Source: a virus (lineage: Duplodnaviria > Caudoviricetes). Taken from it: DNA of 60,349 bases. The notes under the pieces were generated by a model. The model had not been told where the DNA came from, did not search any database, and worked only from the letters and a program-made list of their open reading frames with translations. The stretch spans positions 1 to 60,349 of IMG/VR virus record IMGVR_UViG_3300037313_001400; one strand, given 5' to 3'. Made by a program: the position numbers and the translations under genes. How positions within the stretch are numbered: position 1 is the stretch's first letter; each line of letters opens with the position of its first letter. Shown here piece by piece: positions 20,527-50,425 of this stretch.

Positions 20527-20904
20527 TCAGAACCAGGTGGCGACTGGGCCGTCATCGGTCAGTGCCACTACGAACATCTTCACATCAGCATTGGGTCGCT
20601 CGGCGAGATCGCCGGCGGAAGGACCTACATGGCCCGAGGGGTGGGTGTGCCAGACCGCCACCTCGAACTCGTCGCCCCCGACCCCCTCCAGGGCCAACCT
20701 TATGTCATCGGGGTATATCACGTATTGCCCCGTGGTGTGGAGGGTTCGGTTGGGCAACTCAATCACGTAGGAGAGTCGGCCATTTCGCCATATCGGCGCA
20801 TCCAGGAGAAGTCCGCAAGCCTCGGCCGGTTCCCTCAGAGTACCGAGGTTGTAGATCTCATCCAGCGACGTTTCCAGTGCCTGGTGCAAAGCCAAGGTCT
20901 TCAT
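20527..20904 (-). CDS. JAB/MPN (JAMM) metalloprotease
   Basis: EACGLL...WHTHPSGHVGPSAGD is a complete JAMM motif. Confidence 0.85.
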   Translation of the reverse strand: MKTLALHQALETSLDEIYNLGTLREPAEACGLLLDAPIWRNGRLSYVIELPNRTLHTTGQYVIYPDDIRLALEGVGGDEFEVAVWHTHPSGHVGPSAGDLAERPNADVKMFVVALTDDGPVATWF

Positions 20905-21970: not shown

Positions 21971-22474
21971 TTACGAGAATAGGGCAAAGCCATTCACACG
22001 GAGATCCGTGGTTTGACTTGATCCCCACACCGACAAGTTATTGAGGTGCTCCCACGGGTAGACTTCCTCGCTGTACCACATAGCTATCAGGTGGTGAGTT
22101 GTGAAAGCCCCATTGCGATCCTTAGCTGTAAGTAGGCGCTTCAGGATCGCATTTTCAGTGACGTGGACCTTCTTCGAAATCTCCATCTTAGTGTGACCGG
22201 TGGCTACTAGCTCGATGATCTCGATCTCAACTGGGCTCAACACGAAAGGTGCCCATAGGGGTATCGGTTCAATGATCTCGGCATCTAGAGCCTGATAGAC
22301 AAGGTGGGTCAGATTCCGGGCCCCGAATCGATTCTTGAGCCGCTCGATTCGACCACGAAAGGTATCTTTCTGAATGCCGAGGTAAGTCGAGATCTCGGTC
22401 CCGTCAAAGCCCAGGGCCAAAAGCTCTAGCATTACCTCGGCATCCTTGAAGCGGCGAAGGTCAGGCGACTGCAT
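21971..22474 (-). CDS. Tandem LuxR-type HTH transcription regulator
   Basis: Two repeats of L.L.A.G....EI...L.I....(F/I)...(I/L).......GA.....L. Confidence 0.8.
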   Translation of the reverse strand: MQSPDLRRFKDAEVMLELLALGFDGTEISTYLGIQKDTFRGRIERLKNRFGARNLTHLVYQALDAEIIEPIPLWAPFVLSPVEIEIIELVATGHTKMEISKKVHVTENAILKRLLTAKDRNGAFTTHHLIAMWYSEEVYPWEHLNNLSVWGSSQTTDLRVNGFALFS

Positions 22475-25348: not shown

Positions 25349-26257
25349 TCAGAGCTTGGTCACCGAGTCGAACCCGCCCGAGGTGGTCACCGCGATGTCA
25401 CCCTTATTGTCCTCCCAGGCAAATGAGTCCGCCTTCTTAAGGTACCGCCCCCGCACCCACTTGTCCAACCCGATCAGGTGAGCCTTGTGCGTGTTGGGGT
25501 TGTCCGGGCTCGGCGGCCAGAAGACCATGGGACTCTCCTTGGTGCCTTCGCCCAGGGGGTAGTCGCTGACCGGCTCCCAGTCGAGGGTACCCAACTTCTC
25601 GCCGTTCTTGTCACTCCAGCAGAAGTATTCACCCTCGACCCATCCAGTGGTCTGGGAGCTGCTGTTGTAGACGAAGGCCCGGATGGGTTCCACCAACCGA
25701 ACATTTCGATCATCCACCCGGGCTTTGAACATCTTGCCCGAGGCCGACAGCCAGTGGAACTGGTCATCGTAGTGGGGATGGGTTTCGATCTGACCGTGCG
25801 TCAGGGTCTCCCCGACGACGGCCCAGGCGTCTTTGTACTGTCGCTCGATCGATTCCTCATCGTCGAGCTCCTCGGGCTCCTCAGGCTCGTCCCAGCCCTC
25901 CTCAATCATCTCCTGCGCATATTGCAGCAGGCCCAGCGCGAGATGCCTTTCCCGCGGGCTCTCGATGGTCAGGCAGCAGGTGTCCATGACGTAGAGCTTG
26001 CCGTCCGTACCGAGGTAGTACAGGGCCGGCAGGCTGCCATTCGACAGCTCCCTCAGCGCACCCAAGGCGGTAACCGCCACGTCAGCGACCTGCTGGTACG
26101 CCTCCTTCGGATTGCCGGCGAGCTTGATGGTCTTCTGCAGGGCTTCCTGGATGGTGGTCTCGGGCTTCATGCTGAAAGCCTCCTTGAGTCGGTGTCCATA
26201 GATATTGATCTGGTCTGAGGTGAGATTCACCTGCCGGCGGGGGTATCTCAGGGCCAT
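25349..26257 (-). CDS. Hypothetical protein
   Basis: 302-aa ORF coupled to the upstream gene; start may be 26170. Confidence 0.7.
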   Translation of the reverse strand: MALRYPRRQVNLTSDQINIYGHRLKEAFSMKPETTIQEALQKTIKLAGNPKEAYQQVADVAVTALGALRELSNGSLPALYYLGTDGKLYVMDTCCLTIESPRERHLALGLLQYAQEMIEEGWDEPEEPEELDDEESIERQYKDAWAVVGETLTHGQIETHPHYDDQFHWLSASGKMFKARVDDRNVRLVEPIRAFVYNSSSQTTGWVEGEYFCWSDKNGEKLGTLDWEPVSDYPLGEGTKESPMVFWPPSPDNPNTHKAHLIGLDKWVRGRYLKKADSFAWEDNKGDIAVTTSGGFDSVTKL

Positions 26258-26571
26258 GACAGCATCACCTTGTGTGTCTTCGAGAAGTCCCCACTAGAGA
26301 TCAGCTGGTGACCCTCCTTGAGCTGGCAGCGGGTCTCCTCCACACCCTCGACCGCGTAGAAGTCACATTGCTTCTTGCGTCGGGCCTGGCGGTGACTGGT
26401 GTACCTGTGCTCGTCGTGGTAGTTGACCAGGGCAGCGAGGGGCTGCTCCAGCCCGAAGGGCTCGGACTGGTGACCGCAGCCATCGACGTCGTGATACACG
26501 AGACCCGCTGGTTTACCCTCGCGATCGAGCTTGATCCTGACGGTGAACTCGTTCTCCTGAGGCTGACCCAT
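26248..26571 (-). CDS. Hypothetical Cys/His protein
   Basis: GGAGG RBS; coupled to neighbours. Confidence 0.6.
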   Translation of the reverse strand: MGQPQENEFTVRIKLDREGKPAGLVYHDVDGCGHQSEPFGLEQPLAALVNYHDEHRYTSHRQARRKKQCDFYAVEGVEETRCQLKEGHQLISSGDFSKTHKVMLSWP

Positions 26572-26855
26572 CAGCTCCCCTCCTTCTGCTTGGGCACGTA
26601 CTTGAGCAGCCCGCCCTGAATACCGGCGACCTTGTAGAACAGCGAGCTGTAGTTCGACGACCAGAAGTCATTCCACCTGATCGTGTAGGTGATGTTGACA
26701 GTACGGTCACTGATGCTCACCTGGGTGATCTCGACCCTGTGGTAGTCGACCCCCTCAGAGTCGAACTGATAGGTCACCTGCCGCATCCAAGCCAGCCAGG
26801 CCCATATCGGCAGGGTACCCATCGGGTCGTCGGAGATCTCGATGGTGGCCGTCAT
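26571..26855 (-). CDS. Hypothetical protein
   Basis: AAAGGGG RBS before MTATIEIS. Confidence 0.6.
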   Translation of the reverse strand: MTATIEISDDPMGTLPIWAWLAWMRQVTYQFDSEGVDYHRVEITQVSISDRTVNITYTIRWNDFWSSNYSSLFYKVAGIQGGLLKYVPKQKEGS

Positions 26856-26962
26856 GTAATGCCCCCTTTCTGATGTAAGCATCATATCGGATCCAGTACC
26901 CACGCCAAGGTCCCCCCGCCAAATAGGTTCTCGGCCTTTGGTAGGGGGACCCATGTATGGTA

Positions 26963-27472
26963 TTAGAAGTTGTCCAGCCTCGGCCGGATCTGGGGCTCGA
27001 TGTACTGAGCGTGGAACTTGGACATGCGCGGGTCCACCCTGACGATGTACTCGCCATTGTAGAGTCGACCGAGCCGCTCAGGGGTGAAGCCCCCCCTACG
27101 CATCTGCAGCATCTCCTCCAGCCAGTCGTCCCAGGTCTCGGGATGGATGACCATCATGGGGAAGATGTTCCGGTCACTCTCGAGGCGCTCGAAGACGATT
27201 CGCGCACCCACCGACTCCGTTTTGTCCTGCTGGGCGAGAGATACGGCCTCATCCTCAGCCCCAGCGGCCACCAGCACAGCCCTGAGTACCTCGGCGATGT
27301 CCGGGCGCGGGTAGTTCAGGTTCTGCTGGGTGACCCAGACCATCACCCGGCGCCACAGGGCGAGAACGGCCTGGAGCCATTCCGGGGAGCCCTTAGGCAA
27401 CTTGTTGAGGGCGTCGACGTCGGCGCTGATGCTGTTGCTCATCCACACCGGCATGGAGCGGCGGTTCGCCAT
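26963..27472 (-). CDS. Hypothetical protein
   Basis: TGATG coupling to the upstream gene. Confidence 0.7.
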   Translation of the reverse strand: MANRRSMPVWMSNSISADVDALNKLPKGSPEWLQAVLALWRRVMVWVTQQNLNYPRPDIAEVLRAVLVAAGAEDEAVSLAQQDKTESVGARIVFERLESDRNIFPMMVIHPETWDDWLEEMLQMRRGGFTPERLGRLYNGEYIVRVDPRMSKFHAQYIEPQIRPRLDNF

Positions 27473-27852
27473 CAGTGGCCCTGGGGGTAGTCGTACGGCG
27501 GCTCGATGAACGGGTTGAGCCTCGGGTCGGTCGGTGCCGCCAGCGCGCGGCCCTCCGCCGTCACGGGGCCGATGAGGGGCCAGTTCGGGTTCGTCTCCTC
27601 GGCCAGGTTGTCGAACAGGAAGTGCCCGAGCTCGATCGGCACCTCGCTGATCTCGCGGATCGTCTTGGCGTCCAGCAGGAGGTTGTGCGACTGCTCGGTC
27701 GTCCGGGCGTCGAAGTGGATCATCGCCAGGGCAGCCCGAGCCACGGCGGTGAACCGACGGTACCTCTCGTCGACCCCCATCTTACGCGACATCTTGATCT
27801 CCTTCACCTCCCGAGCCATCTCCTTAAGGGAGGCGATAGTGCGATCAGCCAT
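27472..27852 (-). CDS. Hypothetical protein
   Basis: TTGACG-17-TAGCAT promoter, AAAGGAG RBS. Confidence 0.7.
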   Translation of the reverse strand: MADRTIASLKEMAREVKEIKMSRKMGVDERYRRFTAVARAALAMIHFDARTTEQSHNLLLDAKTIREISEVPIELGHFLFDNLAEETNPNWPLIGPVTAEGRALAAPTDPRLNPFIEPPYDYPQGH

Positions 27853-27902
27853 TCTACTGCTCCTTTCGTGTGGAGTAATGCTATCTGCTCTCTGACTGCC
27901 CG

Positions 27903-28142
27903 TCAACAATCGACGGAGGTGATCTTCGCCTTACGGGCGCGCAGCTGCAGCATGATCTCGTCGTCGAGCTCGTAGCCGTTCAGCAGCATGATCCGCCGGT
28001 CTCTCGAGCCCACGATCTCCTCGTAGAGGCGAGTCTGGCTCGTCATGACCACGAAGTCATTGCGGGTCAGGTTGTGCTTCTCGATGTACTGGAGTCCGTC
28101 CCGCACGGTCATCGCCATCAGGATCGTCTTACGGCCGCCCAT
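27903..28142 (-). CDS. Hypothetical protein, paralog of 28475-28714
   Basis: Aligns by eye over its full length with its paralog. Confidence 0.7.
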   Translation of the reverse strand: MGGRKTILMAMTVRDGLQYIEKHNLTRNDFVVMTSQTRLYEEIVGSRDRRIMLLNGYELDDEIMLQLRARKAKITSVDC

Positions 28143-28187
28143 GGTGTCGATCAGTTCTTTTCTCGTGTCGGACGGGAGGCGGGGTGC

Positions 28188-28442
28188 TCATGACTGCCCC
28201 TCGTGCTTTTCTACGACGTGAATGCGGAAGTCGTGCGCCATCTTGGCCATGGTCTTCAGGTCGCGCTTGCTCACCACGTCACCGCTGAAGGCGATGGTGC
28301 GAAGAGTCTCGTATTCCAGACGGGTCACCGCCTGAACCGGAGTGATCTCGGACGCGGTGAGCTTGATGTCGAGTTCGTCGATCAACTCCTGGAGGCCCAT
28401 GAGGGTTTTGAGGAAACTCTTCCTTGGACGATCTTTGTTCAT
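28188..28442 (-). CDS. Hypothetical protein (leaderless)
   Basis: TTGACC-17-TAGCAT, then 7 nt, then ATG. Confidence 0.65.
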   Translation of the reverse strand: MNKDRPRKSFLKTLMGLQELIDELDIKLTASEITPVQAVTRLEYETLRTIAFSGDVVSKRDLKTMAKMAHDFRIHVVEKHEGQS

Positions 28443-28474
28443 GCCGGCAATGCTATCAACTCCGTAATTGGCGG

Positions 28475-28714
28475 TCAATCGAGCCGGTATTCCACGTGAA
28501 TGAGCTTGGCCTGGGTGCATCGCAGGTCTTCTCGCTCGTACTTGTTGAGGCGGGGCTCGTTGAGGAGGATCACCGGACGATCCATGGTACCCCTAAGGTG
28601 GTATTGCAGGAGATCGAAGTTGGTGACGATCCAGAAGTCGTAGGGGTCGAGGTTGTAGGTCGCCAGGTAGGTCCGGGCCAGGTTTCGATTCTCTGCGACG
28701 AGGAGGGGCTTCAT
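28475..28714 (-). CDS. Hypothetical protein (leaderless), paralog of 27903-28142
   Basis: TTGACC-17-TAGGAT, then 7 nt, then ATG. Confidence 0.7.
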   Translation of the reverse strand: MKPLLVAENRNLARTYLATYNLDPYDFWIVTNFDLLQYHLRGTMDRPVILLNEPRLNKYEREDLRCTQAKLIHVEYRLD

Positions 28715-28839
28715 GCCGGCGATCCTATCGGATGGGAGATGGGAGGTCAACAGGCCCTTGATTTGGGGGTGGATATACGTGGTTAAATTTCTCGGGAAGA
28801 GGTCAGAGCGACCGCCAGCTATGGTCCGGACGCGGCCCA

Positions 28840-29385
28840 CGGATGAATCCCACGAAATCTCCCGGGGGGTTCATACCACCGGAGATCCATCCAAAACGGA
28901 CATTACCCACCAACTACGGATCTATCCAATTTTAACGGGATCTACCGGAAATAACAGAAGATCCATCCCATTATCAATTCGATTCGAATGGGAACAACAC
29001 AACAACAGAAACAATAGAATGACCCATGCATCATTCAATGGGATTCATCCTGATGAATAGGGAAAGGGGATCATTCATCAGGGATATATGCATGGAAATC
29101 ATCCCATTGAATAGGAATAAGGGGATATATGCAGGGGATATTACCATGGCAATATGCATCCCCAATAACCCCCCTATATACACCCCCGCCCCATATAAGG
29201 GGGATTATGCGCCGCCGGCGATATGCGCCCATCATGCATGCATCGGAGAAAGGTCTGGAGAGGGGCAGGATACCCCATAGGCTATGCCCCCCTGATATGA
29301 CCCCTTATATACGCCCCCGGCGATATAGGAGGGCAGGATACACAAACCTAGGAGCCCAATATAGGGCCCCCGGTTATAGGTGGGG
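28840..29385. other. AT-richer structured non-coding region (candidate genome end / packaging region)
   Basis: Nested inverted repeats, GT-free top strand, no credible ORF. Confidence 0.55.
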
Positions 29386-29386
29386 T

Positions 29387-29974
29387 TTAGTACTGCGGCA
29401 TTTCAACCCCGAGGTCCTTGAGCTTGCGGCGCGCGGTGGCGATCAGGGTCTTCTGCGCGCCCCCGTGAACCTTGGCGGACCAGTGGTCGTATCCGTTGAA
29501 CTTCATGGTCCAGAATCGGATCGCGGCGTCGCGGCAGATCATGATGCCGTCGTGGTAGATCGGGTTGCGAACCTCGTCGCCCTCATAGGTGGTGTGGAAT
29601 ACCTTCTCGGTGCGCGCCTCCTCGGGGCAGGAGCAGGTGTCCCAGTTGCATTCCTGAACCCCAACCCCGCGAAGAGCGGCGCCCATGATTTCCTCGACCT
29701 CGGCGGTGCCGTCGTAGTAGGAGTCAACGGCGGCCTTGAGGTCGGCGTCACCGGATTCGGAGGCGATGCGTCGCAGGGAGGCCATGATCTCCTCGATCTC
29801 AGCGTCACCCTGGTAGTAGGAGTCGATCGCCTCGCGCAGGGCGAACTTGAGGTCGCGGTTGGTGGGTTCAGCGATCACCGGGGCCTGAGCGGCGCGCGCC
29901 TTGCGGCACTTCGCGCGGTCGGCCTTGGTCGCGGGGTGGGTGCAGTCGGTGTGGGAGGTTCGCGTCGTCGTCAT
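29387..29974 (-). CDS. Early protein (leaderless) with SHxxCxHP..RAKCRK N-terminus and an internal repeat
   Basis: TTGACA-17-CATAAT, 6 nt, ATG; DSYY.G.AE.EEIM occurs twice. Confidence 0.75.
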   Translation of the reverse strand: MTTTRTSHTDCTHPATKADRAKCRKARAAQAPVIAEPTNRDLKFALREAIDSYYQGDAEIEEIMASLRRIASESGDADLKAAVDSYYDGTAEVEEIMGAALRGVGVQECNWDTCSCPEEARTEKVFHTTYEGDEVRNPIYHDGIMICRDAAIRFWTMKFNGYDHWSAKVHGGAQKTLIATARRKLKDLGVEMPQY

Positions 29975-30117
29975 GCCTTTATTATGCCACCTCGGCTCCA
30001 CGGTGTCAAGGAGGAAATCCCGGCCGTTTAAGGGGGTCCACACCGCGAGGCGTATGCTAGCATTCCTCAGCGGTCAACACACCGCAGAACCCCCCGTAGG
30101 GGGCCTGGGCGAGGGCA

Positions 30118-30300
30118 TTACCACCAGAGCGGCTGCGGGGACTGGGGGCGGAGGGACTCGTCGTACCCGCCCTGGGCCTCGAACCATTTGTCAAGGTCGA
30201 CGGGGTCGGCGGTCTCCAGGGCCTCGAACTCGTCGTGCGTCGGCGCGTAGGTCTTAACGAGGGAGACCCCCTTGATGCCCTTGCCGTCGGAGAATGCCAT
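30118..30300 (-). CDS. Small early protein
   Basis: GAAGGGACTGA leader motif. Confidence 0.65.
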   Translation of the reverse strand: MAFSDGKGIKGVSLVKTYAPTHDEFEALETADPVDLDKWFEAQGGYDESLRPQSPQPLWW

Positions 30301-30367
30301 GCTGATCAGTCCCTTCGATGTGGTGGGGGAGGGGGGCCAGAGTGACCCCCCTCAGGTCATGCGGTGG

Positions 30368-30640
30368 TCAGCGGGCGGCGATCCAGTCGCAGGCGGCCTG
30401 GAAACCCTGCTGGCAGTCGTCCTGCTTCGAGTCGGCGAAACCGTCGTTGAAGACCGCGACCCGGTCGACCTTCGGCGTGTCGCTGGTCGCCGCCTGGTAG
30501 AGACCGACCCCGGCGCCCATCAGGAAGGCGAGCATGAAGGGGGTCGCGATGACGATCAGCAGGTTGCGCAACCACTTCGGGAAGCGGCGGGGCGTCTGCA
30601 GGGTGGTGATGCGGGCGGCGGGGGTGATGCGGATGTTCAT
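30368..30640 (-). CDS. Early membrane protein
   Basis: TTGACA-17-TAAGGT promoter, GAAGGGACTGA leader, one TM helix. Confidence 0.7.
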   Translation of the reverse strand: MNIRITPAARITTLQTPRRFPKWLRNLLIVIATPFMLAFLMGAGVGLYQAATSDTPKVDRVAVFNDGFADSKQDDCQQGFQAACDWIAAR

Positions 30641-30681
30641 TGAGGTCAGTCCCTTCGGTGGTTGATGTTGATAGGTTAACC

Positions 30682-31002
30682 TTATACCCCGTCGGGCGGG
30701 GTGTCAAGGTCGATGTCGTTGATTTCCGCGACGCAGTCCCAGCAGAGGGGGTCGACGTCGATGGTGTCGGGCGCGGTGCAGGCGTTCTCTCCACACCTGC
30801 CGCAGATGGTGTCGCCGGGGATGGTGACCCCGAACTCGGTGCCCAGGGTGCGGATGATCGCCCTGGCGATCTCCTTGCGCGGGTCCAGACCGCCCGGGAG
30901 GGTCATCCCGATCATCTCGAGGGGCGGTTCGTCGACGGCGAATTCGGCATCGCCGACGGCGTTGATCACGGTGTGGAGAAAGAGGTGAAGGTTGTTGGTC
31001 AT
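30682..31002 (-). CDS. Early protein with two CxxC motifs (leaderless)
   Basis: TTGACA-17-TAGGGT, 6 nt, ATG. Confidence 0.7.
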   Translation of the reverse strand: MTNNLHLFLHTVINAVGDAEFAVDEPPLEMIGMTLPGGLDPRKEIARAIIRTLGTEFGVTIPGDTICGRCGENACTAPDTIDVDPLCWDCVAEINDIDLDTPPDGV

Positions 31003-31154
31003 GCCCTTACCCTATCTCTTCCTCGGGGTGGTGTCAAGGGGCAATCCTCGGCACTTTAAGGGGGTGTAGAGGCGATGACCCTGGCGTGGAATGCCAGCAT
31101 ACCCCGTCGCCCCATACACGGCGAGAGGGCGCTTGCGCGCCCCCTGCCACCCCG

Positions 31155-31352
31155 TCAGTCCTCCGGCATCAGATCGCGCTCGTGCAGATATTCGCCTGCC
31201 AACTTCGCGATGACCAGCGCCAGCACCCTTGCGTTGCCTCCCTCAGCATCCGCGCGACCTTTCAGATCGCCGCACATCGCCTCATCGATCATCTCGCACA
31301 GTTCGTGCGCCAGTTCTGCTTCACCCTTGATGATCTTCGCGTTCAGTGTCAT
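31155..31352 (-). CDS. Small early protein (leaderless)
   Basis: TTGACA-18-TACTAT, 6 nt, ATG. Confidence 0.7.
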   Translation of the reverse strand: MTLNAKIIKGEAELAHELCEMIDEAMCGDLKGRADAEGGNARVLALVIAKLAGEYLHERDLMPED

Positions 31353-31410
31353 GTATACATAGTATCGTCCCCCCAACCCCGTTGTCAAGGTCAGGGGGAC
31401 GATGTTTAGA

Positions 31411-31830
31411 TCAGACCTCGGCGTCGTCGTCCTCGAGCAGGGCGGCGATCTCCTCGTCGGTCGGGCCCTCGATGCCGTCGAGGTCCTCGTCCTCGTCGTT
31501 GATGTCCTCGTTACCGCCCTCGTCGGTCGGCGTGATGATCGCCTCGGCGGGCGCCGGCTTCTTGATCGCCTCCAGGGCGATCCGGCGCGCCTCCTTCGCC
31601 TCCTCCTGGGCGATCTCCCAGGCGGCGAACTTCTTCTTCATCGCCGCGACCTCGCGCTTGTTCATCTCCAGGGCGTAGCGCGACCCCTTGCCGACCACCG
31701 CCTTGCCCTCACCCAACTCGTCGCGCAGAAACTTCCGCAGCGTGCGGGTCGCGGCCTTCTTGTTCGTCTCGACGGCCTCCTCGCCCATGATGGCGACGGC
31801 GAGGGAGGAGGTGGTGTAGATCTCGGCCAT
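31411..31830 (-). CDS. Early DNA-binding-like protein with acidic tail
   Basis: RTLRKFLRD...VGKGSRY motif shared with 39998-40459. Confidence 0.75.
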   Translation of the reverse strand: MAEIYTTSSLAVAIMGEEAVETNKKAATRTLRKFLRDELGEGKAVVGKGSRYALEMNKREVAAMKKKFAAWEIAQEEAKEARRIALEAIKKPAPAEAIITPTDEGGNEDINDEDEDLDGIEGPTDEEIAALLEDDDAEV

Positions 31831-31953
31831 TTCGATCAGTCCCTTCGGTGTGGGGGTCATGCCCCCTCGTTGATGAGTTAATTCTTGCATCCTGCGGGGG
31901 GCGTTGTCAAGGCGCCCCCGTAATAACCTTAGGTATCAGTTTTGACAGCAAAA

Positions 31954-31971
31954 TGCCCCCTTTCGGGGGCA
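31954..31971 (-). terminator. Intrinsic terminator
   Basis: TGCCCCC-GAAA-GGGGGCA followed by TTTT on the minus strand. Confidence 0.75.
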
Positions 31972-31979
31972 CTGAGCGA

Positions 31980-32282
31980 TTAGCGTCGCGAAGGGTCAAT
32001 CCATCCCTTCGGGAGGATATGGGCGATTTGAGCGTTACGGGCGTTATAAAGCATTTCATCGCTTTCGATCACGATCGCGTCGCGAAGGGCGTTTTCCACC
32101 GCTTCGATCGCTTCATCACGCGATGAGAAGTGATATCCCGGCATGACCAGATTCGTGTCATCGATCATCGGGATGGCATGCACATTCATCCCTCGCTTAT
32201 TCGCGTGCCGGCAATTGCGATTCGCCCCCTTGCATCCCTCGATGATTTGAATGCGCGCGCTGTCATTGATGACGATGATCAT
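31980..32282 (-). CDS. Probable first early gene, hypothetical
   Basis: TTGACA promoter at 32336-32341, GAAGGGGA RBS, own terminator; atypical codons. Confidence 0.65.
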   Translation of the reverse strand: MIIVINDSARIQIIEGCKGANRNCRHANKRGMNVHAIPMIDDTNLVMPGYHFSSRDEAIEAVENALRDAIVIESDEMLYNARNAQIAHILPKGWIDPSRR

Positions 32283-32349
32283 GATGCGAATCCCCTTCGT
32301 GTTGATGCATCTAGTATCGCATCATCGCGCGACGATGTCAAACGGCGTT

Positions 32350-33630
32350 AACCGCGTCGTGCAGGCGATTTCCCACACCGAAGGAATGCTAGCATTCGAC
32401 GATGTCGCTGATCATGCGCGCATGACGTCGTGCAGAGCGTCAGTGACGGCGTTGCGCATCGCGATACACCGTCATAACTGATCATGAAAATCGGACATTT
32501 GCGGATATTTTACACTGTTCAAACCGTCCGTTTTGGCGGGAATGGGGGAGTTGATAGCATTGTCTTGTACGACCACGATGTCCGATTTGGACGGGACCAC
32601 TCGGTTTGGGAGATTCCTCCACACCCGAGAAGGTCATCCGAATCGTCCTGATTGCCGAGCGGGCAAAAGTTCCCGCGAATCTCCCAGCAGCTACGTGGCA
32701 ATATACAACAAACGATCTGGGATCTCGACTGCGGACCGAGAAAAGATTAATCCGTAGATCCGGGTATTAAAAGCAGGGTACTATACCACGGTCAGATTGT
32801 TTAGACTTTTAGACCCTCGCGATTCGGTCTAAACAACTAATACGGTGTACGGACCTATCCCAGTTTCATCCCCTCCGGCAAGCCTCGGTATAGCATATCT
32901 GCTGTCATCTCTATGAGATAATTGCCCGGTCCCACGTTATATCCCAGGAGATATCCCGTCTCCGGCATACATGGCAGCCTATAGCTGGGACGGGTCCACG
33001 GATATAACGCGGGACCGTACCCATCGACTTTGCCGGCATGGGCTGAAGCGGACCAAACTCTACGGAAGTGTACGGAAAACTCTGGGGAAAACTCCGTTGT
33101 TTCTGACAGTGCTCCTTGGAGTGTTCCACGTGTGCCCGGTTGTCCTCTGTAGAGCGTTGCCTATGTACCCGGCCGCGGAATAGTCCGGGGATAACTCCGT
33201 CCGTAGGCACCGTCAGATGTGTGCCGACCAGCCCCAATCAACCTCCCTAACCACGTACCAGAACTTCATCCCGGTCCCGCAGTTCCTCCCAAGAATGTTT
33301 ACCCAGCCCCGTATCACACCCCCGTACCGAGCATCACCCATCATCACTCCCGACCCCGTCTACCCAGCAGCCCAACAATTCACCCCGTTACAGACATCGG
33401 GCATCACCCAGAGCTATCCCGACCATACTCACTGGCCCTTCCGACCATACTTACTTCCCAAGTCATCATGAAAGCCCCCGTCATGTATCGCGCTGCATCG
33501 CGACTCATCGCATCGAATCAGCATGCTCTCTGACGACACATAAAGAAGGCCCTAATCGGGTGAGATATCAAGCGGAATAATTCTGACCCGCCCAATAAGC
33601 CCGCCCAATCAGGGCCCTCTCTGAGTCAAT
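32350..33630. other. 1.3-kb non-coding region (candidate genome end or origin)
   Basis: Motif clusters, long hairpin, C-skewed tract, no convincing ORF. Confidence 0.55.
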
Positions 33631-33633
33631 CAG

Positions 33634-33867
33634 CTAGCAATCGAGCCTGGCCCCACTGATAGCCCGGGCCATCATCTGGGCGACAGCCTCACCCATGGTC
33701 TCGCCCTTACCGCTCCAGTAAGTATGGTCCTCATATCGGCGACCACTCACCTTGTACTCCGTAGCCGGACCCAGGGCCTTACTCCACTTCAGGTCCTCGA
33801 GCTCCAGAGTACCCACCCTGCCATCCTCGTATCGGATCTGCAGCTGAGCCCGGATAGGCTGCTTCAT
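33634..33867 (-). CDS. Hypothetical protein
   Basis: ATGA coupling to the upstream gene (MKQPIRAQ). Confidence 0.6.
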   Translation of the reverse strand: MKQPIRAQLQIRYEDGRVGTLELEDLKWSKALGPATEYKVSGRRYEDHTYWSGKGETMGEAVAQMMARAISGARLDC

Positions 33868-34355
33868 TCCCCTACCACCTTTCCATCCTTCGGGCAGAAC
33901 CTCCACCCAGTCTGAAGGAACATCCCACACGAAGCGCATCGCGTCTCGGTGGCCCCGGTCTTGAATTCCCCGCCGGCAAGAGCCTGCATCGCATCCCGAC
34001 CGATGTTCCTCAGTCGCTTGTCCATGGCCTTCTTGAGCTCCAGGGCCATCTCATCCAGCACCACGAAGTTGCGCTTGTATCGCTTTCCATTCGTCTTGGC
34101 GCCTCGACCCCGGGCCTTGCCCAGAGCCCCCTGTTCCTGCTGGGCGGCAGCCACCTGAGAGCCACCTCCATCGGACTTCAGCGCCAGACTGAAGATCGTG
34201 GCATAGACCTCGAGGAAGCCCCGAGGCAGAAAGTACAGCACCTCCATCGACACCTGAGCATGCGGCACGCCCGCCGCAGCCCGGATCTCAGCGAGACGAG
34301 CTCGAACCTTGTCGTCGAGCAGGTCAGTTCCAGGTGCAGCGAGCGGCCGCGTCAT
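33864..34355 (-). CDS. Hypothetical protein with C-terminal Zn ribbon
   Basis: RCASCG...WRFCPKDG. Confidence 0.7.
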   Translation of the reverse strand: MTRPLAAPGTDLLDDKVRARLAEIRAAAGVPHAQVSMEVLYFLPRGFLEVYATIFSLALKSDGGGSQVAAAQQEQGALGKARGRGAKTNGKRYKRNFVVLDEMALELKKAMDKRLRNIGRDAMQALAGGEFKTGATETRCASCGMFLQTGWRFCPKDGKVVGE

Positions 34356-34361
34356 TCAGCT

Positions 34362-34625
34362 TCAGTCCTTCCGAGTGCTCAGGTAGTCCTGCGCAGCCTT
34401 GTCGAAGGGCTGCAGCTTGGTCCGTCCGGTGGTGATGTCTATGGTGTGGATGAGGGTCGTGGGCTCGGGGTCGGTGGGCCTCAGCAGGTACCAGGCCGTG
34501 CCGGCGATGATGATGGCCACCACCCACGAGACGTGGAGGAAGATCATCGCCCCTGCCCCAGCCGCGAGGGCCAGTATCTTTGTCGTCATGCCTAGTACCT
34601 TATACTCCGGCTGGCCCTCGGTCAA
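34362..34625 (-). CDS. Small membrane protein
   Basis: Two hydrophobic segments; start uncertain. Confidence 0.6.
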   Translation of the reverse strand: MTEGQPEYKVLGMTTKILALAAGAGAMIFLHVSWVVAIIIAGTAWYLLRPTDPEPTTLIHTIDITTGRTKLQPFDKAAQDYLSTRKD

Positions 34626-34630
34626 TAGCC

Positions 34631-35125
34631 CTAGTCACCCCCGTTCTCGTCTCGTGATTCCGGACGTGGGTTGGACCATCCGCCGAGTCGAGTCTTTTCC
34701 CTGAGCCACTCCCTTATCTCCCCGAAGACATCATCCCCGATCCTCCACACCATCGGGAGGCCCTCGCGACCATTCTCCTCATCGATCACGAAGCCCTTGG
34801 CCTTGTACTCCCTGAGTTCCCAGATGACCGCGTCCATGGGCCATCCCAGCTTGACTGCGATGTTCTTCGGTGTGATGGGCCCCATGACCATCACCAGCCA
34901 GAGGATGGGATGATCCTGCCTGAGTTCATCCATTTCACTGAGCCAGTAGTTGTCGTCCTCGTCGATCTCGAGACGCCATTCGTAGTAGCTCATATTCCAC
35001 ACCCTCATTTCCCCCTGTCGCGCAGGGTTCGGTTTTATGTTATGGCACGCGAGCCGCGAAGCGGTAGCGAGTGTGACGTAATGTAAGGGCGAAAACCCTA
35101 GTGGGAGTTCAGGTGATTCAACCAC
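34631..35125 (-). CDS. Winged-HTH-like protein
   Basis: GPITPKNIAVKLGWP...VIWELREYKAKGFV; start uncertain. Confidence 0.5.
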   Translation of the reverse strand: MVESPELPLGFSPLHYVTLATASRLACHNIKPNPARQGEMRVWNMSYYEWRLEIDEDDNYWLSEMDELRQDHPILWLVMVMGPITPKNIAVKLGWPMDAVIWELREYKAKGFVIDEENGREGLPMVWRIGDDVFGEIREWLREKTRLGGWSNPRPESRDENGGD

Positions 35126-35406
35126 CTCTTCCTCAAGTTCTTGTGCTCGGTGTGGACGAGGCGATAAGTCTTGCCCCAGAGCTTTACTGTGCCCGCATTG
35201 AGGGCCTTGTCGATCTCTCTATCGAGCCTGTTAGCCCAAGCGGGGAATCGGAACTCGAGTTGTTCGTGGGTGCAGTTGCCCTCGCGAATGAGGGCCCACA
35301 CGATGGGGTCGGTTCGATAGAGAGCTCGGACTAGCTCTTTGGTTTCGATGCGACGCTTGCGTTTGATGAGCTTCTGGAAGCCTGGATCTGCATAGGGGTT
35401 ACGCAT
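35098..35406 (-). CDS. Hypothetical basic protein
   Basis: 102-aa ORF with plausible RBS. Confidence 0.55.
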   Translation of the reverse strand: MRNPYADPGFQKLIKRKRRIETKELVRALYRTDPIVWALIREGNCTHEQLEFRFPAWANRLDREIDKALNAGTVKLWGKTYRLVHTEHKNLRKRWLNHLNSH

Positions 35407-35637
35407 TGCTTTTACACCCTTCGATTTTTTAGATTGTTAGTTATTAAGTTGCCATTTCTCTCAGCTTCGCTGAGAAATGATCGCGTCGCCCGCACGAGGG
35501 GATTCATGGGGGGCCACCACTGTGGGGGACATATCGGACGTCGCTTGAGTTGTTTAGACTTTTTTAGAGTCTAAAAAGCCTGTTCAGGGAAGGAGGGCCG
35601 GCTAGGAGATGTCGACCCTCCTTATGCGCGCGAGGGG

Positions 35638-42256: not shown

Positions 42257-42589
42257 TCAGGCCTTGGCGATGCCGCGAACCTCGTTCTTCTCAGCGTCGG
42301 CCTCGGTGGCATAAGGCCAGGTCATCCAGAGCCAGTCCTCGGCGAGCAGGTCAGTCTGGGATGCCACCCACGGCACGAAGTCACCCTGCGCGGTATGGAA
42401 CATCAGGTAGGGCAGGAACTTGCGTACGGTGCCGACCTCGAGCCCCGTTGCATCGGCGGTGTTCTGGTTGATCGGGATGCCTTCGGGGTAAGCCTTCTGC
42501 ATCACGACGTACATGCCCCGACCATTCCACCCCTCACGGGTGATTCGGTGGCCCTCGCGGGCCATGCGGAGAGCGTCGGAGAAGTCCAT
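42257..42589 (-). CDS. tad2: DUF2829 / Tad2-like anti-defence sponge protein
   Basis: MDFSDAL...G.RITREGWNGRGMY...PYL...VPWVASQTDLLAEDW signature. Confidence 0.85.
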   Translation of the reverse strand: MDFSDALRMAREGHRITREGWNGRGMYVVMQKAYPEGIPINQNTADATGLEVGTVRKFLPYLMFHTAQGDFVPWVASQTDLLAEDWLWMTWPYATEADAEKNEVRGIAKA

Positions 42590-46489: not shown

Positions 46490-49057
46490 TTAAGCCGCCT
46501 GGTACGCCGGGTGGTTATCCTCCAGCCACTGCTGTAGACGATCCTGTTCGTAGATCACCGAAGAATCTTCGACCTCGTGAGCGTCACCCCAATGCTGTCC
46601 CAACTTCAGATCTGCCACGATCGGAATGGTGAGTACCGTACCGAACTTCTTGCGCAGGGGTGTGGGATCCTCCATGGTATTCTTGATGATGGGCAGGGCT
46701 CGAGCGAGGTGGTCATTCCTGACCTCAAAGTTCACGGCGTCGTGAACCAAGCCCAGGCAGTTGCCGGCGATACCCTGACGTCGGAACTCTTCGTTGATCA
46801 GGGTCATGCTGAGCAGCGCCATGTCAGAGGCGAAGCCCTGCACTGGTGAGTTGATTGCCTGTCGCTCTGCTTCGGCTTGGACCCCCTTATCGGGCGAGTA
46901 GATATCGGGCAGGTGCCTGATGCGCCCTAGCGGCGACTGGACTCGTCCATTGGCGTGCGCAAGGCGGCGCATTCGAGCGTGCCAGGGCAGCAGGTCGGGG
47001 AAGAGATCGAAGTATGCGGTACGGTAGTTCTTCGATTCCTGCTCAGTGAAGACCGCACCATAGTTGTTGAACGCGGTTTCGATGAACTTCTTCCAGCCCA
47101 TGCCGTAGAGGAAACCGAAGTTAACCGGCTTACCGACCTTCTTGCGAATCTCCTTGGTGATCTTGTGGGCCGGGAGCCCGGTGACCGCCATGGCTGTGGT
47201 GAGGTGGATATCCGCGCCCTGTTGGTAAAGGGCGATCATGTGGCGTTCCTTGGCGATGAACGCGGCGATCCTCAGCTCGATCTGGGAGTAGTCGGCCTCG
47301 ACGAAGGTCCAACCGGGCGGTGCGCCGAACATACCCCGGATGAATGGATCTCGAGGTACCTGCTGAAGGTTAACCCCTCGAAGATCGGTACGACCCGAGA
47401 CCTTCTCGGCATCGGCCTTACCAGAGCTGAGTCGACCCGTTACCGTGCCGCACAACTTGAAGTTGGTGTGGATGCGGTGGTTCTCATCGTACATCTTCTC
47501 GTAGGCATTGAAGAACGAGCTCAGGTTCTTCTGCCATCCAACCCGCTCGAGCATGAGGTCGATGGCGGGGTGGTGGTGATCGGCCTGCAGGTGGAGAAGA
47601 ACCGACTCAGCCATGCTGGGGTCACCCGGCGAGCCATCATCCTTTTCTTTGCCCCGTTCGAGCACTGGCAGGCCGAGGTGTTCGAAGAGGAACCAACGGG
47701 CGAAGAGACCGGCATTGTAGTTGATGTCGAGAGGTTTACCAGTCTTGTGGTGCTTGGGCCATTCTTCGGAATCACGATCGGGAAGAAACTCACCGAGCTG
47801 GTCCTCGATTCCTTTGAGTTTGGCTTCAGCCTGAGGTTTTCTCTCGGCATGACGCTTGACATCAAACCAGATGCCTCGTCGTTCGATGTGGACCAAGTCT
47901 CGACTTGCCGGCATCATGAGCTTGGTCAGCACCCGGGCGAGTCGGGGCTCTTGCTTGAGTTCCGCTACCTGTTGCCCCTTCACCTTGAGGGTGTAGAAGG
48001 TATCCAGGAAGTTATACTCAAGCACCTCATGGAGGGGGTCGTTGAGAAGGTTCTTAGTGTCACGGCCCCAAGGCGGTACGCCGAGTCGAGCCATGGCATT
48101 GGGCTTGAGACCCTTAGCCCCGTTCTCATTGATAAGATGCTGGGCGATCATGGTGTCAAAGGTCTGCTTCAGGTCCACACCAAAGTGAACCAGCCACCGG
48201 CAGTCGAACTTGCCATTCTGGGCGATGACCTTTGGGATGGATTCCAGTGCCTCCTTGAGGAACTTGAGCACCGACTTCCACTTGCGCTGCCAGACCGACT
48301 CCGGATGATACAGGGGCAAGGCGAAGCCGAAGACCTTCTGACTCGATTCGCCCGTATCGGGGTCAACCACCGTGACCAGGCAAGTACCCGCCACCGAGAT
48401 GATCTTAGCTCCGGGGTCGAACTCACCGAGAGGGTTGATTGTGGACTCGATGTCGATACTGATGGTGTGGCTCATGAAGAGGATTTTCTTCAGAGCCTTC
48501 AGTTTCTTCTCGGTGTCGATCGTGCTGTACTTCGGCACCCTGATCTCAGAGATCTTACCGTAGTAGGAATTCGAGAAGAGGCGCAGGTCAGCCATGTACC
48601 CCCCGAGCTGACCCGGGTTGCGTGAGACGGCCGCCGGAGACACCGTGGGGAATACCTCGTACTCGCCCTTGTCGATGGGCTTGCCCCGGTACTTCATGAT
48701 GCCAGACTTGCCGGCGGCAGACAGCAGGCCCTCATTACCCAGGGCGAGTACGTGGGTGGGCTTGATTACCTCGAGCTCTCGTTCGAGGTGTTGCCGGCAG
48801 GCCTTGATGTCCCCGTTGCTGGCGTTATCCTCAAAGTTACGGCACTTCAGTGCCGAGGTGAAGTAAACTTCTCGGGGGTCGATGTCCACTTCGCGAAGCT
48901 GCTGCTCGAGGAGTTTCTGGTACTTCTCCGAGTTCGGCATCTTGGAGATGACCATGACCTCAGCGTTGGTCGGACCGAAGCCCATCTCACAGACTTCGTC
49001 GGTGTTGCGCTGTAGCTTACACCCCATGCAGTCTCGGTCGGGCAGGAGGTTAGTCAT
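46490..49057 (-). CDS. polA: DNA polymerase family A with N-terminal family-4 UDG-like domain and 3'-5' exonuclease
   Basis: ADYSQIELR, KPVNFGFLYG, VHDA; exonuclease DIE/NGKFD/YNFLD; N-terminal CxxC...KC...AC. Confidence 0.95.
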   Translation of the reverse strand: MTNLLPDRDCMGCKLQRNTDEVCEMGFGPTNAEVMVISKMPNSEKYQKLLEQQLREVDIDPREVYFTSALKCRNFEDNASNGDIKACRQHLERELEVIKPTHVLALGNEGLLSAAGKSGIMKYRGKPIDKGEYEVFPTVSPAAVSRNPGQLGGYMADLRLFSNSYYGKISEIRVPKYSTIDTEKKLKALKKILFMSHTISIDIESTINPLGEFDPGAKIISVAGTCLVTVVDPDTGESSQKVFGFALPLYHPESVWQRKWKSVLKFLKEALESIPKVIAQNGKFDCRWLVHFGVDLKQTFDTMIAQHLINENGAKGLKPNAMARLGVPPWGRDTKNLLNDPLHEVLEYNFLDTFYTLKVKGQQVAELKQEPRLARVLTKLMMPASRDLVHIERRGIWFDVKRHAERKPQAEAKLKGIEDQLGEFLPDRDSEEWPKHHKTGKPLDINYNAGLFARWFLFEHLGLPVLERGKEKDDGSPGDPSMAESVLLHLQADHHHPAIDLMLERVGWQKNLSSFFNAYEKMYDENHRIHTNFKLCGTVTGRLSSGKADAEKVSGRTDLRGVNLQQVPRDPFIRGMFGAPPGWTFVEADYSQIELRIAAFIAKERHMIALYQQGADIHLTTAMAVTGLPAHKITKEIRKKVGKPVNFGFLYGMGWKKFIETAFNNYGAVFTEQESKNYRTAYFDLFPDLLPWHARMRRLAHANGRVQSPLGRIRHLPDIYSPDKGVQAEAERQAINSPVQGFASDMALLSMTLINEEFRRQGIAGNCLGLVHDAVNFEVRNDHLARALPIIKNTMEDPTPLRKKFGTVLTIPIVADLKLGQHWGDAHEVEDSSVIYEQDRLQQWLEDNHPAYQAA

Positions 49058-49550
49058 GGCTATACCTTACCACGACTAGCCCAGCCTGTTCGAGTAGCAG
49101 CAGACCGTCATTCTGGCGATGGGGCTCGTACCAAACCACGCGCTTGATCTCGGCGTTGATGATCAATCCGGCGCAGTTCAGGCAGGGCATCCTCGTGGTG
49201 TGGAGCTCGGCACCCTTGACTCCCACACCATACTTGGCGGCGTGCACCAGGGCGTTGGCCTCGGCGTGAACCGCGAGGGTGCAGGGTTGTCGGGTGATGC
49301 ACCAAGTGTCATGCTCGGTATCCCCCTCGACGAAGTCAACTAGGCCGACCCCTGGGGCCATGGTGCAGTTGCACCCATGGGCGCAGTGGGGCATGCCCGT
49401 GGGAGCCCCGTTGTAACCGCTGGCGAGTATGCGACCCTCGCGACTGAGTACGGTGCCGACCTGAGCTCGGCTGCAGGTGGATCGGAGAGCCCAGTTCTTG
49501 GCGCTCTGCATGAGGACCCAATCACGGGGCGGTCGATCGAGTTCGTTCAT
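49050..49550 (-). CDS. dCMP deaminase
   Basis: RSTC...GYNG, HAEANA, PCLNC. Confidence 0.93.
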   Translation of the reverse strand: MNELDRPPRDWVLMQSAKNWALRSTCSRAQVGTVLSREGRILASGYNGAPTGMPHCAHGCNCTMAPGVGLVDFVEGDTEHDTWCITRQPCTLAVHAEANALVHAAKYGVGVKGAELHTTRMPCLNCAGLIINAEIKRVVWYEPHRQNDGLLLLEQAGLVVVRYSHD

Positions 49551-50425
49551 CCCAGTGCCTCACGGAGTCGTACGGACTTTTCGATCGTGGCTTGTCGGCG
49601 AAGGTGATTGACCATGGCGCGATCACCCTCGAAGATGTGGAAAGAGCCGATGTGCATGGTGAGGTCGCCCATGGCCAGTTCTTCCACACCATGCTGAACG
49701 GTGGCGTAGAGGAAGGTCTCCCTCACCCAGTGACCGAGGCGAACCGCCATGTAGACATCGTCGCGGAAATGCCTCATGAAGTCGCATGCCCTCATGTGGT
49801 AAGTGAGGTGCAGTCGACCCGAGCGAATCATGAGATGGTACCCCAGCGTACAGGGCACCCTTTCTCCCTCAGGTGCCCCGGTGTCCTCGGGGAACCATAT
49901 CGGCAGATAGGCTTGCCGAGTGAGGGGATTGGCGATGAGCCGCTCGACCACATCGAGGGCATCACCGTAGTGAAACCTGATGCCCTTGCGACCGAGGTCA
50001 CGGGGGTCGGGACCGTCCCATGAGTCCCACCACTCGTCGGTGTTCTCGGCGTATTTCGGCCAGAACCGTTCGGGGTAGGTGTGGGAGAACTTACCCTCGC
50101 TGAGGTGGTCAGCATGGCCTTGCTGGGCGAATGGCCACCACTTGTGGGAAGGCGGCGGATTCAGTGGGATACCACTGACCCGTTCTTGAAAGTGGTCCTC
50201 AGCCCACGGCAGGTTCGGTCGGTACTCGCGCTGCGCCCCTTCGATCGATTCGGGCATCCGCATCACCAGCGAGCTCTCCCTGAGCTCCCAAGTGACCTTC
50301 GAGCGATCGCCCTTGATGTCGAGCCCCTGCCACTGGCCGACGTCGACCGGGAGGGCGGCCTCCGAGAAGTCCTCGAGAAGCCGCCCCACCATGTCGGCGA
50401 AGGTCATACCCTGGTAGACCCTCAC
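49547..50425 (-). CDS. Thymidylate-synthase-fold enzyme 1 (dCMP hydroxymethylase-like)
   Basis: TRQA, VPCTLGYH, MRACDFMRHFRDD, HIGSFHIF. Confidence 0.85.
   Translation of the reverse strand: MRVYQGMTFADMVGRLLEDFSEAALPVDVGQWQGLDIKGDRSKVTWELRESSLVMRMPESIEGAQREYRPNLPWAEDHFQERVSGIPLNPPPSHKWWPFAQQGHADHLSEGKFSHTYPERFWPKYAENTDEWWDSWDGPDPRDLGRKGIRFHYGDALDVVERLIANPLTRQAYLPIWFPEDTGAPEGERVPCTLGYHLMIRSGRLHLTYHMRACDFMRHFRDDVYMAVRLGHWVRETFLYATVQHGVEELAMGDLTMHIGSFHIFEGDRAMVNHLRRQATIEKSVRLREALG

Follow-up and report, generated by a model that had tools for sequence, protein, structure and literature searches.

Local depletion of the degenerate palindrome RGCY in a putative early cassette of an uncultured phage

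We analysed the whole of virus record IMGVR_UViG_3300037313_001400 (Caudoviricetes; 60,349 bases), referred to here as the window, and found that one block of it, positions 29422–32688, is purged of the degenerate palindrome RGCY (that is, of AGCT, AGCC/GGCT and GGCC). On the plus strand the block has no AGCT, no AGCC, three GGCT and 14 GGCC, giving 17 RGCY sites where ∼77 would be present at the density of the genome (1,433 sites in 60.3 kb). The purge is confined to this block, and it acts at the DNA level, since a noncoding stretch and both strand-specific members of the word set (GGCT and AGCC) are depleted. The reading that we favour, to which we give about an even chance, is that leading or early DNA evades an RGCY-specific nuclease in the manner of T5. 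Early timing, the nuclease itself, protective gene products and base modification are all elements that we infer.

RGCY is purged from a single block

As the main control, the seven minus-strand genes in 29387–32282 were subjected to 5000 within-gene synonymous permutations, with P defined by the permutations giving a count as low or lower. These genes contain 14 RGCY sites compared with 36.2 ± 3.35 expected, and none of the 5000 permutations was as low. The expectation was 39.4 for a pooled permutation and 46.6 for the codon usage seen elsewhere in the genome. In the within-gene permutation the members of the word set behaved as follows:

AGCT: 1 observed, 4.29 expected, P 0.006
GGCT, mRNA sense: 0 observed, 5.48 expected, P 0.0002
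AGCC: 2 observed, 5.81 expected, P 0.004
GGCC: 11 observed, 20.6 expected, P 0.0004

Eight further palindromic tetramers showed no depletion in the same permutation of the seven genes. All codon phases were depleted of RGCY (1 compared with 5.6, 3 with 8.2 and 10 with 22.4), while the ratios for the rest of the genome were ∼1.

When 22,021 degenerate 4-mer classes were scanned, RGCY was the most depleted (z −6.9, or −7.2 with a correction for genome-wide context bias), with AGCY and GGCY alone scoring below it. Among the 120 plain tetramers, AGCC/GGCT, AGCT and GGCC took ranks 1, 3 and 4. The gene-wise RGCY deviation is confined to the seven consecutive cassette genes (z −0.7 to −3.6), the mean z over the 95 called genes being −0.09. 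The noncoding stretch 32342–32688 (347 bp), which lies upstream of the first promoter-like site, has no RGCY compared with 8.2 at genome density. A first-pass annotation of the window, made from the sequence alone, had proposed a synonymous purge specific to this region and a codon-shuffled control to check it. The depletion held under that control, and the permutation, phase, gene-wise and word scans together bear out the specificity.

The recoding is visible in the codons themselves. On the plus strand of the block, the base after AGC is A in 13 cases and G in 16 but never C or T, whereas elsewhere 65% of AGC trimers are followed by C or T. In the cassette, alanine after a G-ending codon is written GCG 17 times, GCC 10 times and never GCT; after a C-ending codon it is GCC 37 times, GCG 18 times and GCT five times. 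Glu-, Lys- or Gln-Leu pairs are themselves scarce inside the AGCT gap and all four are written without AGCT, compared with elsewhere, where 188 of 257 contain it (27% avoid). The four codon choices that had first been picked out by eye are correct (GAA CTG twice and AAG TTG in 31155–31352, and GAG TTG in 31411–31860). For comparison, AGCT-containing pairs were said to be used freely in 57244–57894; we counted 12 AGCT in 57001–58000. AGCC/GGCT occurs at 1–3 per kb in the block compared with 8–19 per kb in most windows elsewhere, and GGCC is approximately halved.

The word that first drew attention was AGCT, reported as missing from 29425–32688 with a single site (29421) in 28821–32688, against about eight in the first 1 kb. 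These coordinates are correct: AGCT is found at 28817, 29421 and 32689, with none from 29422 to 32688 out of 322 in the genome, and eight were counted in bases 1–1000. The gap of 3,268 bp is less probable (8.6e-6, Poisson approximation) than that of any other reverse-complement tetramer class occurring 30 times or more. The Markov-2 expectation for AGCT within the block is only 2.2. AGCT alone is therefore weak evidence, the signal being the wider RGCY purge, and it was rejected as the sole signal because AGCC/GGCT is more depleted. Likewise, the AluI/SacI-type site that had been suggested does not describe the motif by itself, AGCC/GGCT being purged at least as strongly as AGCT.

GTAC had been proposed as a second purged word. 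Its positions were given correctly, with only 29390 and 30163 occupied between 28587 and 32567, and the seven genes contain two sites compared with 5.9 from genome codon usage (P 0.03). Against the within-gene permutation, two compared with 3.86 is not significant (P 0.16), and GTAC was rejected on that basis. The stretch 31829–32688 is RGCY-free as described, the last RGCY before 32689 being at 31825. The further statement that depletion is strongest toward the first gene is only partly right: the first gene is free of sites, but the counts in order of transcription are 0, 5, 0, 0, 1, 3 and 5.

Other features of composition were noted in the same region. GCCA/TGGC is the second most depleted tetramer in 29387–32282 (12 compared with 22.6) and may be a second avoided word; words of the CCA/TGG type (CCAS, SCCA, CCAR and KCCA) head the lists of depleted words in the early regions of three related genomes (G012, G001 and G007, see below). 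In 29000–33000, GCGA/TCGC is the most over-represented tetramer (69 compared with 47), CGCG/GCGC is enriched 2–5 fold (12–29 per kb compared with ∼5), and codon choice moves strongly towards codons ending in C.

The block resembles an early cassette

The block fits an early cassette transcribed by the host RNA polymerase, as judged from predicted signals and gene content. The first-pass annotation had presented it as an early-gene cassette, and the promoter-like TTGACA sites on the coding strand and the terminator-like hairpin agree with this. The region has the following features, the promoter-like and terminator-like sites coming from pattern searches:

32313..32341, minus strand: promoter-like TTGACA-17-GATACT, with TG, ahead of the first gene
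31881..31910, minus strand: promoter-like TTGACA-18-AAGAAT
31359..31388, minus strand: promoter-like TTGACA-16-GATACT (or TTGACA-18-TACTAT)
29981..30009, minus strand: promoter-like TTGACA-17-CATAAT
29350..29371, minus strand: terminator-like hairpin with a T-rich tail, just past the last cassette gene
32283..33633: stretch of 1.35 kb in which no gene was called, with many direct and inverted repeats
32685..32696, minus strand: the 12-mer ACGTAGCTGCTG, exactly at the upstream edge of the block

The four perfect-TTGACA sites are all on the coding strand and precede four of the seven cassette genes. In the 10.5 kb scanned there were nine promoter-like sites compared with 3.2 ± 1.8 in shuffles, and six of the 11 looser matches of the genome (TTGACA-N16-18-nAnnnT) fall in the block, the additional ones starting at 31037 and 30707. 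An example of the upstream repeats is AAATCGGACAT / ATGTCCGATTT, at 32488–32498 and 32578–32588, which is conserved in relatives. Four close relatives have the 12-mer ACGTAGCTGCTG at the corresponding syntenic edge, once in each except for one where it occurs three times, and it stands nowhere else in the loci compared; it is absent from the Triscuit loci and from distant relatives.

The seven genes of the cassette, with RGCY counts against expectation, are:

31980..32282, minus strand: 100 aa, first gene of the cassette, without a family match; 0 RGCY, 2.8 expected
31411..31860, minus strand: 149 aa, acidic C-terminal tail; 5 RGCY, 11.3 expected
31155..31352, minus strand: 65 aa, isoelectric point (pI) 4.6; 0 RGCY, 2.6 expected
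30682..31002, minus strand: 106 aa, pI 4.1, CxxC...CxxC; 0 RGCY, 2.1 expected
30368..30640, minus strand: 90 aa, phrog_31224; 1 RGCY, 4.8 expected
30118..30300, minus strand: 60 aa, pI 4.3; 3 RGCY, 3.6 expected
29387..29974, minus strand: last cassette gene, 195 aa; 5 RGCY, 9.4 expected; its 3′ end contains the AGCT at 29421

Four of the seven proteins are strongly acidic (pI 4.1–4.6). Within the clade the 149-aa protein is a core early protein, for which 152 relatives were found in metagenomes, none of them named. An Atlas search with it gave only sub-threshold excisionase or helix-turn-helix leads. Four relatives begin this gene at an ATG matching 31830, and the called start at 31860 is probably 10 codons too long. 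No relative of the 195-aa protein was found in IMG/VR or among GenBank phages. At the DNA level the block had no near match among GenBank phages, a distant search giving just two short conserved stretches (44–91 nt).

The depletion recurs at the same locus in related phages

Eleven IMG/VR genomes with a capsid protein 46–71% identical to that of the window were compared with it, making 12 genomes with the window as G000; G011, G013, G014 and G015 were left out. In 11 of the 12, the RGCY-poorest 2-kb window lies between the primase and the terminase, at the cluster of TTGACA promoter-like sites, G008 being the exception. The minima are extreme in three genomes (5 compared with 47.5 in G000, 5 with 52.5 in G003 and 4 with 45.1 in G012) and two- to three-fold in the others. 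The first-pass annotation had suggested examining relatives: the minimum is at the syntenic place in nearly all, and the depletion is strong in three and weak or unspecific in most of the others.

In a codon-aware test of runs of 5–7 genes, with an analytic expectation from genome codon usage, six of the 12 genomes had their best run at the cassette at P < 0.01 (G000, 4.5e-8; G002, G005, G006, G007 and G012); the result was weak in four genomes and the best run was elsewhere in two. In windows defined by the promoters, RGCY was depleted in all nine genomes tested (ratio 0.26–0.68). Among motifs of at most four words, it ranked 1 of 926 in G000, 7 in G012, 8 in G006 and 18 in G007. For the six closest genomes, the minimum for AGCY/RGCT is at the cassette in all six and that for GGCC in three.

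The locus is hypervariable in gene content. Orthologs of the 149-aa gene, with 52–71% amino acid identity to the window's protein, give RGCY counts of 0 in G003, 5 in G000, 8 in G005, 10 in G001 and 7 in G002 (all GGCC), and at conserved residues G003 has GGT CCC where G000 has GGC CCG. These counts and synonymous differences indicate a lineage-specific trait, as an arms race would give. Judged from these comparisons, the purge recurs at the locus, varies in depth and is maintained in place.

One relative carries an additional unit. In G005 (L043 17450–18470) there is an extra module of ∼1 kb that is fully RGCY- and GTAC-free and contains one small opposite-strand gene and AT-rich iteron-like repeats. 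It is preceded by two tandem ACGTAGCTGCTG copies and flanked by inverted repeats containing CGGACAT, and it looks like an inserted or duplicated unit of the early type.

Comparison with the terminal repeat of Triscuit

The closest cultured relative is the Microbacterium phage Triscuit, a singleton (MH047631), with amino acid identities of 64% for the large terminase (TerL), 52% for the DNA polymerase and 50% for the primase. Its gene order is collinear with that of the window genome and it has the same nucleotide-metabolism cluster. Triscuit has a measured direct terminal repeat of 3,795 bp with eight small genes, followed by ∼25 small genes and the terminase (PMC7302621). The 3.27-kb block is close to this repeat in size and position. 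By synteny, the physical ends of the window phage should lie between the primase (35638) and 21803, an interval that includes the noncoding region and the cassette.

The Triscuit repeat (L063 1–3795) is itself low in AACC/GGTT (9 compared with 26.6) and GGTA/TACC (10 compared with 28.1) in plain word counts relative to the rest of that genome, which may reflect a different local avoidance.

Possible base modification and nucleases with RGCY specificity

A cluster beside the DNA polymerase contains four genes of nucleotide metabolism, one of them for a thymidylate-synthase homolog:

49547..50425, minus strand: thymidylate-synthase homolog of dCMP/CMP-hydroxymethylase type, by profile search and alignment, in the cluster
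49050–49550: dCMP deaminase, in the cluster
52740–53228: MazG-like NTP pyrophosphohydrolase, in the cluster
53191–53769: P-loop kinase-like protein, in the cluster

The homolog scores below the cut-off with Pfam Thymidylat_synt (E 2.8e-4) and matches PHROG 160 (E 4e-29). With a profile of 18 homologs, 5b6d (a CMP 5-hydroxymethylase, E 4e-8) and 1b49 (T4 dCMP hydroxymethylase, E 6.8e-5) came ahead of the thymidylate synthases. Cys186 is invariant in the 18 sequences, in a nearly conserved V-P-C-T motif in which the Thr varies. The D216-D217 pair is likewise invariant (18 of 18) and aligns with the Asp of ‘RND’ in T4 dCMP hydroxymethylase and with the MilA Asp, where thymidylate synthase has Asn. 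The same Asp aligns with that of L. casei 1njc/1njd, which we take to be N229D mutants and which score above the wild-type thymidylate synthase. In thymidylate synthase, the Asn at this position specifies uracil. Taken together, the gene set suggests 5-substituted deoxycytidine in the phage DNA.

The 344-aa neighbour of the homolog gave no PDB match and no profile similarity to that family, and an Atlas search gave a tentative lead to thymidylate synthase. A search of the genome for methyltransferase motifs returned only a chance DPPY in a 73-aa open reading frame, and the genome, many genes of which are unannotated, yielded no recognisable DNA methyltransferase or glycosyltransferase, nor any other modifier acting at the DNA level.

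RGCY is the recognition sequence of CviJI, and AoxI comes from Arthrobacter. AoxI is m5C-dependent and is listed with the site RG(m5C)Y (PMC3874153), and in marine viral genomes RGCY has been described as the motif most often methylated (PMC8919816). The recognition sequence of both enzymes is thus the word purged from the block; the harder purge of A/T-flanked sites than of GGCC is documented for neither.

Scans of genome contigs gave no host clue for the 149-aa family; for the thymidylate-synthase-like family all hits were phage-like contigs binned with unrelated taxa in metagenomes, which is no evidence of host. A 64%-identical thymidylate-synthase-like homolog (P0064) lies on a 58.7-kb contig labelled Streptomyces sp. 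by NCBI, which is a possible host lead for the clade only.

Proposed nuclease evasion and its precedents

In the reading that we favour, the phage would be a lytic siphovirus with actinobacteriophages as relatives, and the block its early cassette, of host-takeover type. Its seven small, mostly acidic proteins would be read by the host RNA polymerase from several consensus-like promoters directly upon DNA entry. By a logic known from T5 and T7-like phages, DNA that is exposed and working before there is any phage protein could not afford target sites for a host nuclease, and selection may have stripped RGCY from both the coding and the noncoding cassette DNA, in the coding part by context-dependent synonymous choice and by avoidance of certain dipeptides. 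The remaining ∼1,400 RGCY sites would then be protected later, through cassette products, delayed entry or the two combined. A CviJI/AoxI-type specificity would be expected of the nuclease, and the block might be a long terminal repeat that has collapsed in assembly.

Since the phage appears to make 5-substituted deoxycytidine, an AoxI-like cutter of RG(m5C)Y is a serious candidate. This gives a more specific form of the proposal, in which the clade would replace cytosine with a 5-substituted form that is hunted by RG(x5C)Y nucleases of Actinobacteria (AoxI type), and a first-entering, target-free terminal repeat of a few kilobases would encode small acidic proteins that inactivate the nuclease ahead of the entry of the other ∼1,400 sites. 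We put this form forward tentatively and regard it as rather unlikely in its entirety.

There are precedents for selection on leading DNA. T5 and BF23 (Tequintavirus) are restricted only via sites in the first-step-transfer (FST) repeat, which is followed by a repeat-rich noncoding region (PMC10644984). The FST resembles the block in having a few kilobases of small pre-early genes, host promoters and a long repeat-rich noncoding border. It differs in being a proven terminal repeat of ∼10 kb with two-step injection and in lacking sites of at least 6 bp, whereas the window block is purged of a degenerate 4-mer and would be a repeat by analogy; no sequence homology was found between the block and the T5 FST region. 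Certain Autographiviridae escape a Type I system because a motif is lacking in their leading region (PMC12455610). In this case, that of Murciavirus and Mme2I, sensitivity is set by a motif in the first-injected, hypervariable early region and not elsewhere. That phage is a podovirus with transcription-coupled entry and the motif is a bipartite Type I site in one or few copies, while the window genome is of siphovirus type (tape measure protein) and the word short and palindromic. A literature search found local avoidance described only for T5-like and Autographiviridae phages, and nothing on RGCY avoidance in phages.

Phages also avoid short palindromic restriction words genome-wide through synonymous choices. 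Here, in contrast, the avoidance is limited to 5% of the genome and the rest is not depleted. A further comparison is SPO1, a myovirus with hydroxymethyluracil, whose terminal redundancy holds a host-takeover module, a cluster of small early genes under numerous strong promoters of host type, and which replaces a pyrimidine by means of a thymidylate-synthase-like hydroxymethylase, a dCMP deaminase and an NTP pyrophosphatase. By this description, the window phage resembles it in having a putative early cluster of small genes with predicted host-type promoters and a similar set of candidate pyrimidine-modification genes. To our knowledge, no local motif purge is known in SPO1.

Evidence against nuclease evasion and alternative explanations

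Several observations weigh against the reading that we favour. First entry of the block is something that we infer along one line of argument, the analogy with Triscuit, and the Triscuit repeat is not RGCY-poor (14.0 compared with 17.8 per kb), nor does any cassette protein match Triscuit (tblastn, E 1e-3); the terminal-repeat analogy is therefore one of position only. A single contig of the sole public run containing the genome spans 26000–35603 with a flat depth of 13.4 and no ends or joints; depth is one figure per contig and is uninformative on termini or a repeat. Searches of Pfam, PHROGs and NCBIfam with the seven cassette proteins gave nothing informative and no known anti-restriction family, and a PDB profile search with the 149-aa family gave nothing below E 0.4. 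If all cytosines were modified, tolerance of the sites elsewhere would demand a hypothetical early inhibitor.

The pattern of the depletion also raises difficulties. Members of the word set flanked by A/T are purged 5–10 fold and GGCC ∼1.8 fold, which a simple RGCY cutter does not predict. Among the relatives, RGCY ranks 31–98 in the promoter-defined windows of five other genomes, with other words lower; the early region of most is generally odd in composition with RGCY not the leading word; and the within-gene permutation gave no significant RGCY depletion in G001 or G002. The same word is low across a clade with a guanine-plus-cytosine (GC) content of 44–62%, which could mean a cause intrinsic to the phage rather than to varied hosts.

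Such an intrinsic cause could be linked to modification. A phage modification in the RGCY context (of C, or of the T of RGCT) possibly by a hypermodification step, would hinder the host RNA polymerase, or another host factor, on incoming, fully modified virion DNA. The context would be avoided just in those genes that have to be transcribed from this template, with later genes being read from new, not yet modified DNA. This would account for the scarcity of the word at one and the same locus in 11 of the 12 genomes despite their range of GC content, for the conservation of the nucleotide-modification gene set with its invariant Asp, and for the hardest purge being at sites with an outer T:A pair, as in the placing of the AGCY/RGCT and GGCC minima among the six closest genomes. 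The significant depletion of GGCC, which has no such T (P 0.0004), does not fit the form based on T, and the presumably untranscribed stretch 32342–32688 is RGCY-free too. Replacement of deoxycytidine at the level of the pool, as by an enzyme of dCMP-hydroxymethylase type, has no sequence context, and no DNA-level modifier was recognised among the annotated genes. The depth of the purge also ranges from ∼10-fold to none among relatives with the same modification genes. We consider this explanation doubtful.

The block could alternatively be a compositional island, arising by horizontal acquisition or strong codon adaptation, with the scarcity of RGCY as a by-product. Its codon usage is distinct: compared with the rest of the genome, Arg is CGC in 70% versus 26%, Ser is TCC in 64% versus 21%, Ala is GCT in 6% versus 22% and Thr is ACT in 0 versus 14%. 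The 2–5 fold rise in CGCG/GCGC and the reduction of AGC/GCT trimers in the block to 0.44 of the rest point the same way, as do the hypervariable gene content of the locus and the broad compositional shifts in the early regions of relatives, in several of which RSYW, WSWR and CCA-type words lie below RGCY. Nevertheless, RGCY is reduced to 14 compared with 36.2 even when the codon usage of each gene is kept, all three phases are depleted, RGCY is first of the 22,021 words and the noncoding DNA is purged too. The sole traceable outside homolog, that of the phrog_31224 gene in Streptomyces phage Puginator, is unpurged (7 RGCY in 207 bp, in a genome with 28.2 per kb), and orthologs with 52–71% amino acid identity differ in their purge, so that the state is kept or lost in place. 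An island is accordingly an improbable source of the depletion, more so than a modification-linked cause.

That early mRNAs avoid the cleavage word of an endoribonuclease or toxin, for example RGCU, would agree with the near absence of RGCU in the mRNA sense (GGCU 0 compared with 5.5 and AGCU 1 compared with 4.3), but it is very improbable, as AGCC, which is not RGCU (2 compared with 5.8, P 0.004), and GGCC are depleted too, the word is equally missing from the DNA upstream of the first predicted promoter (0 compared with 8.2) and the word set is exactly a degenerate palindrome, as recognition of duplex DNA predicts.

The earlier interpretation is partly supported overall. The observed purge is confirmed and has been sharpened from AGCT to RGCY, and the variant with a modification-dependent cutter, proposed in the first-pass annotation, gains indirect support from the thymidylate-synthase homolog and from the listed site of AoxI.

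Implications of local word avoidance

Avoidance of a word in one part of a genome would mark DNA that is exposed before phage counter-defences act. Until now this has been based on a small number of cases, in coliphages and marine phages, in which the sites are long or rare. In the present genome, a degenerate 4-base word of which ∼80 copies would be expected is removed from 5% of the sequence by visible synonymous recoding. As a computational read-out, it may delimit an early or leading module of a phage that has not been cultured, it predicts RGCY specificity for a defence nuclease in the host, and it nominates seven small proteins as candidate inhibitors, one of them with the 152 metagenomic relatives mentioned above. 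Other phages could be screened by a sliding, codon-aware scan for words whose avoidance is confined to promoter-dense regions.

The observations may also tie cytosine modification to Type IV pressure in Actinobacteria. If the AoxI-type form were true, it would be a T5-like strategy not described in actinophages, the cassette would be a source of new inhibitors of Type IV or IIM restriction, and the depth of the purge would predict from the sequence which phages face such a nuclease.

Other features of the record

The record is a whole virus record whose ends overlap by 180 nt, giving a circular assembly: positions 1–180 and 60170–60349 duplicate each other with one mismatch (T/G). A 763-aa minus-strand frame, tail-fibre-like and with phrog_16641 on its part 58794–60329, spans the record junction. 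The end overlap and this frame show that the start of the record is arbitrary, and the true genome length is ∼60,169 bp. The sole public run that contains the genome is a soil metagenome, and no RNA run with it was listed.

Nearly all of the genes are on the minus strand. They encode a tape measure protein, portal, large terminase and major capsid protein, and also DNA polymerase I, a primase/helicase and a helicase. The best matches of the polymerase, primase and terminase are to Microbacterium, Curtobacterium, Streptomyces and Gordonia phages, with 48–64% amino acid identity for the three closest. A scan of the complete sequence found no tRNA and no Rfam family.

Amid the replication genes, 42257–42589 (minus strand) encodes a protein with a Tad2-like (Thoeris anti-defence 2) domain (Pfam E 1.5e-23). 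The small genes between the cassette and the terminase include those for a prokaryotic JAB/MPN-domain protein (20527–20904, minus strand) and a LuxR/GerE-type helix-turn-helix protein (21971–22474, minus strand). RGCY density in the genome peaks in the plus-strand gene at 57244–57894 (28 sites, 43 per kb), which had no family match and sits in the sole 1-kb window with a strongly positive AT skew (+0.30).

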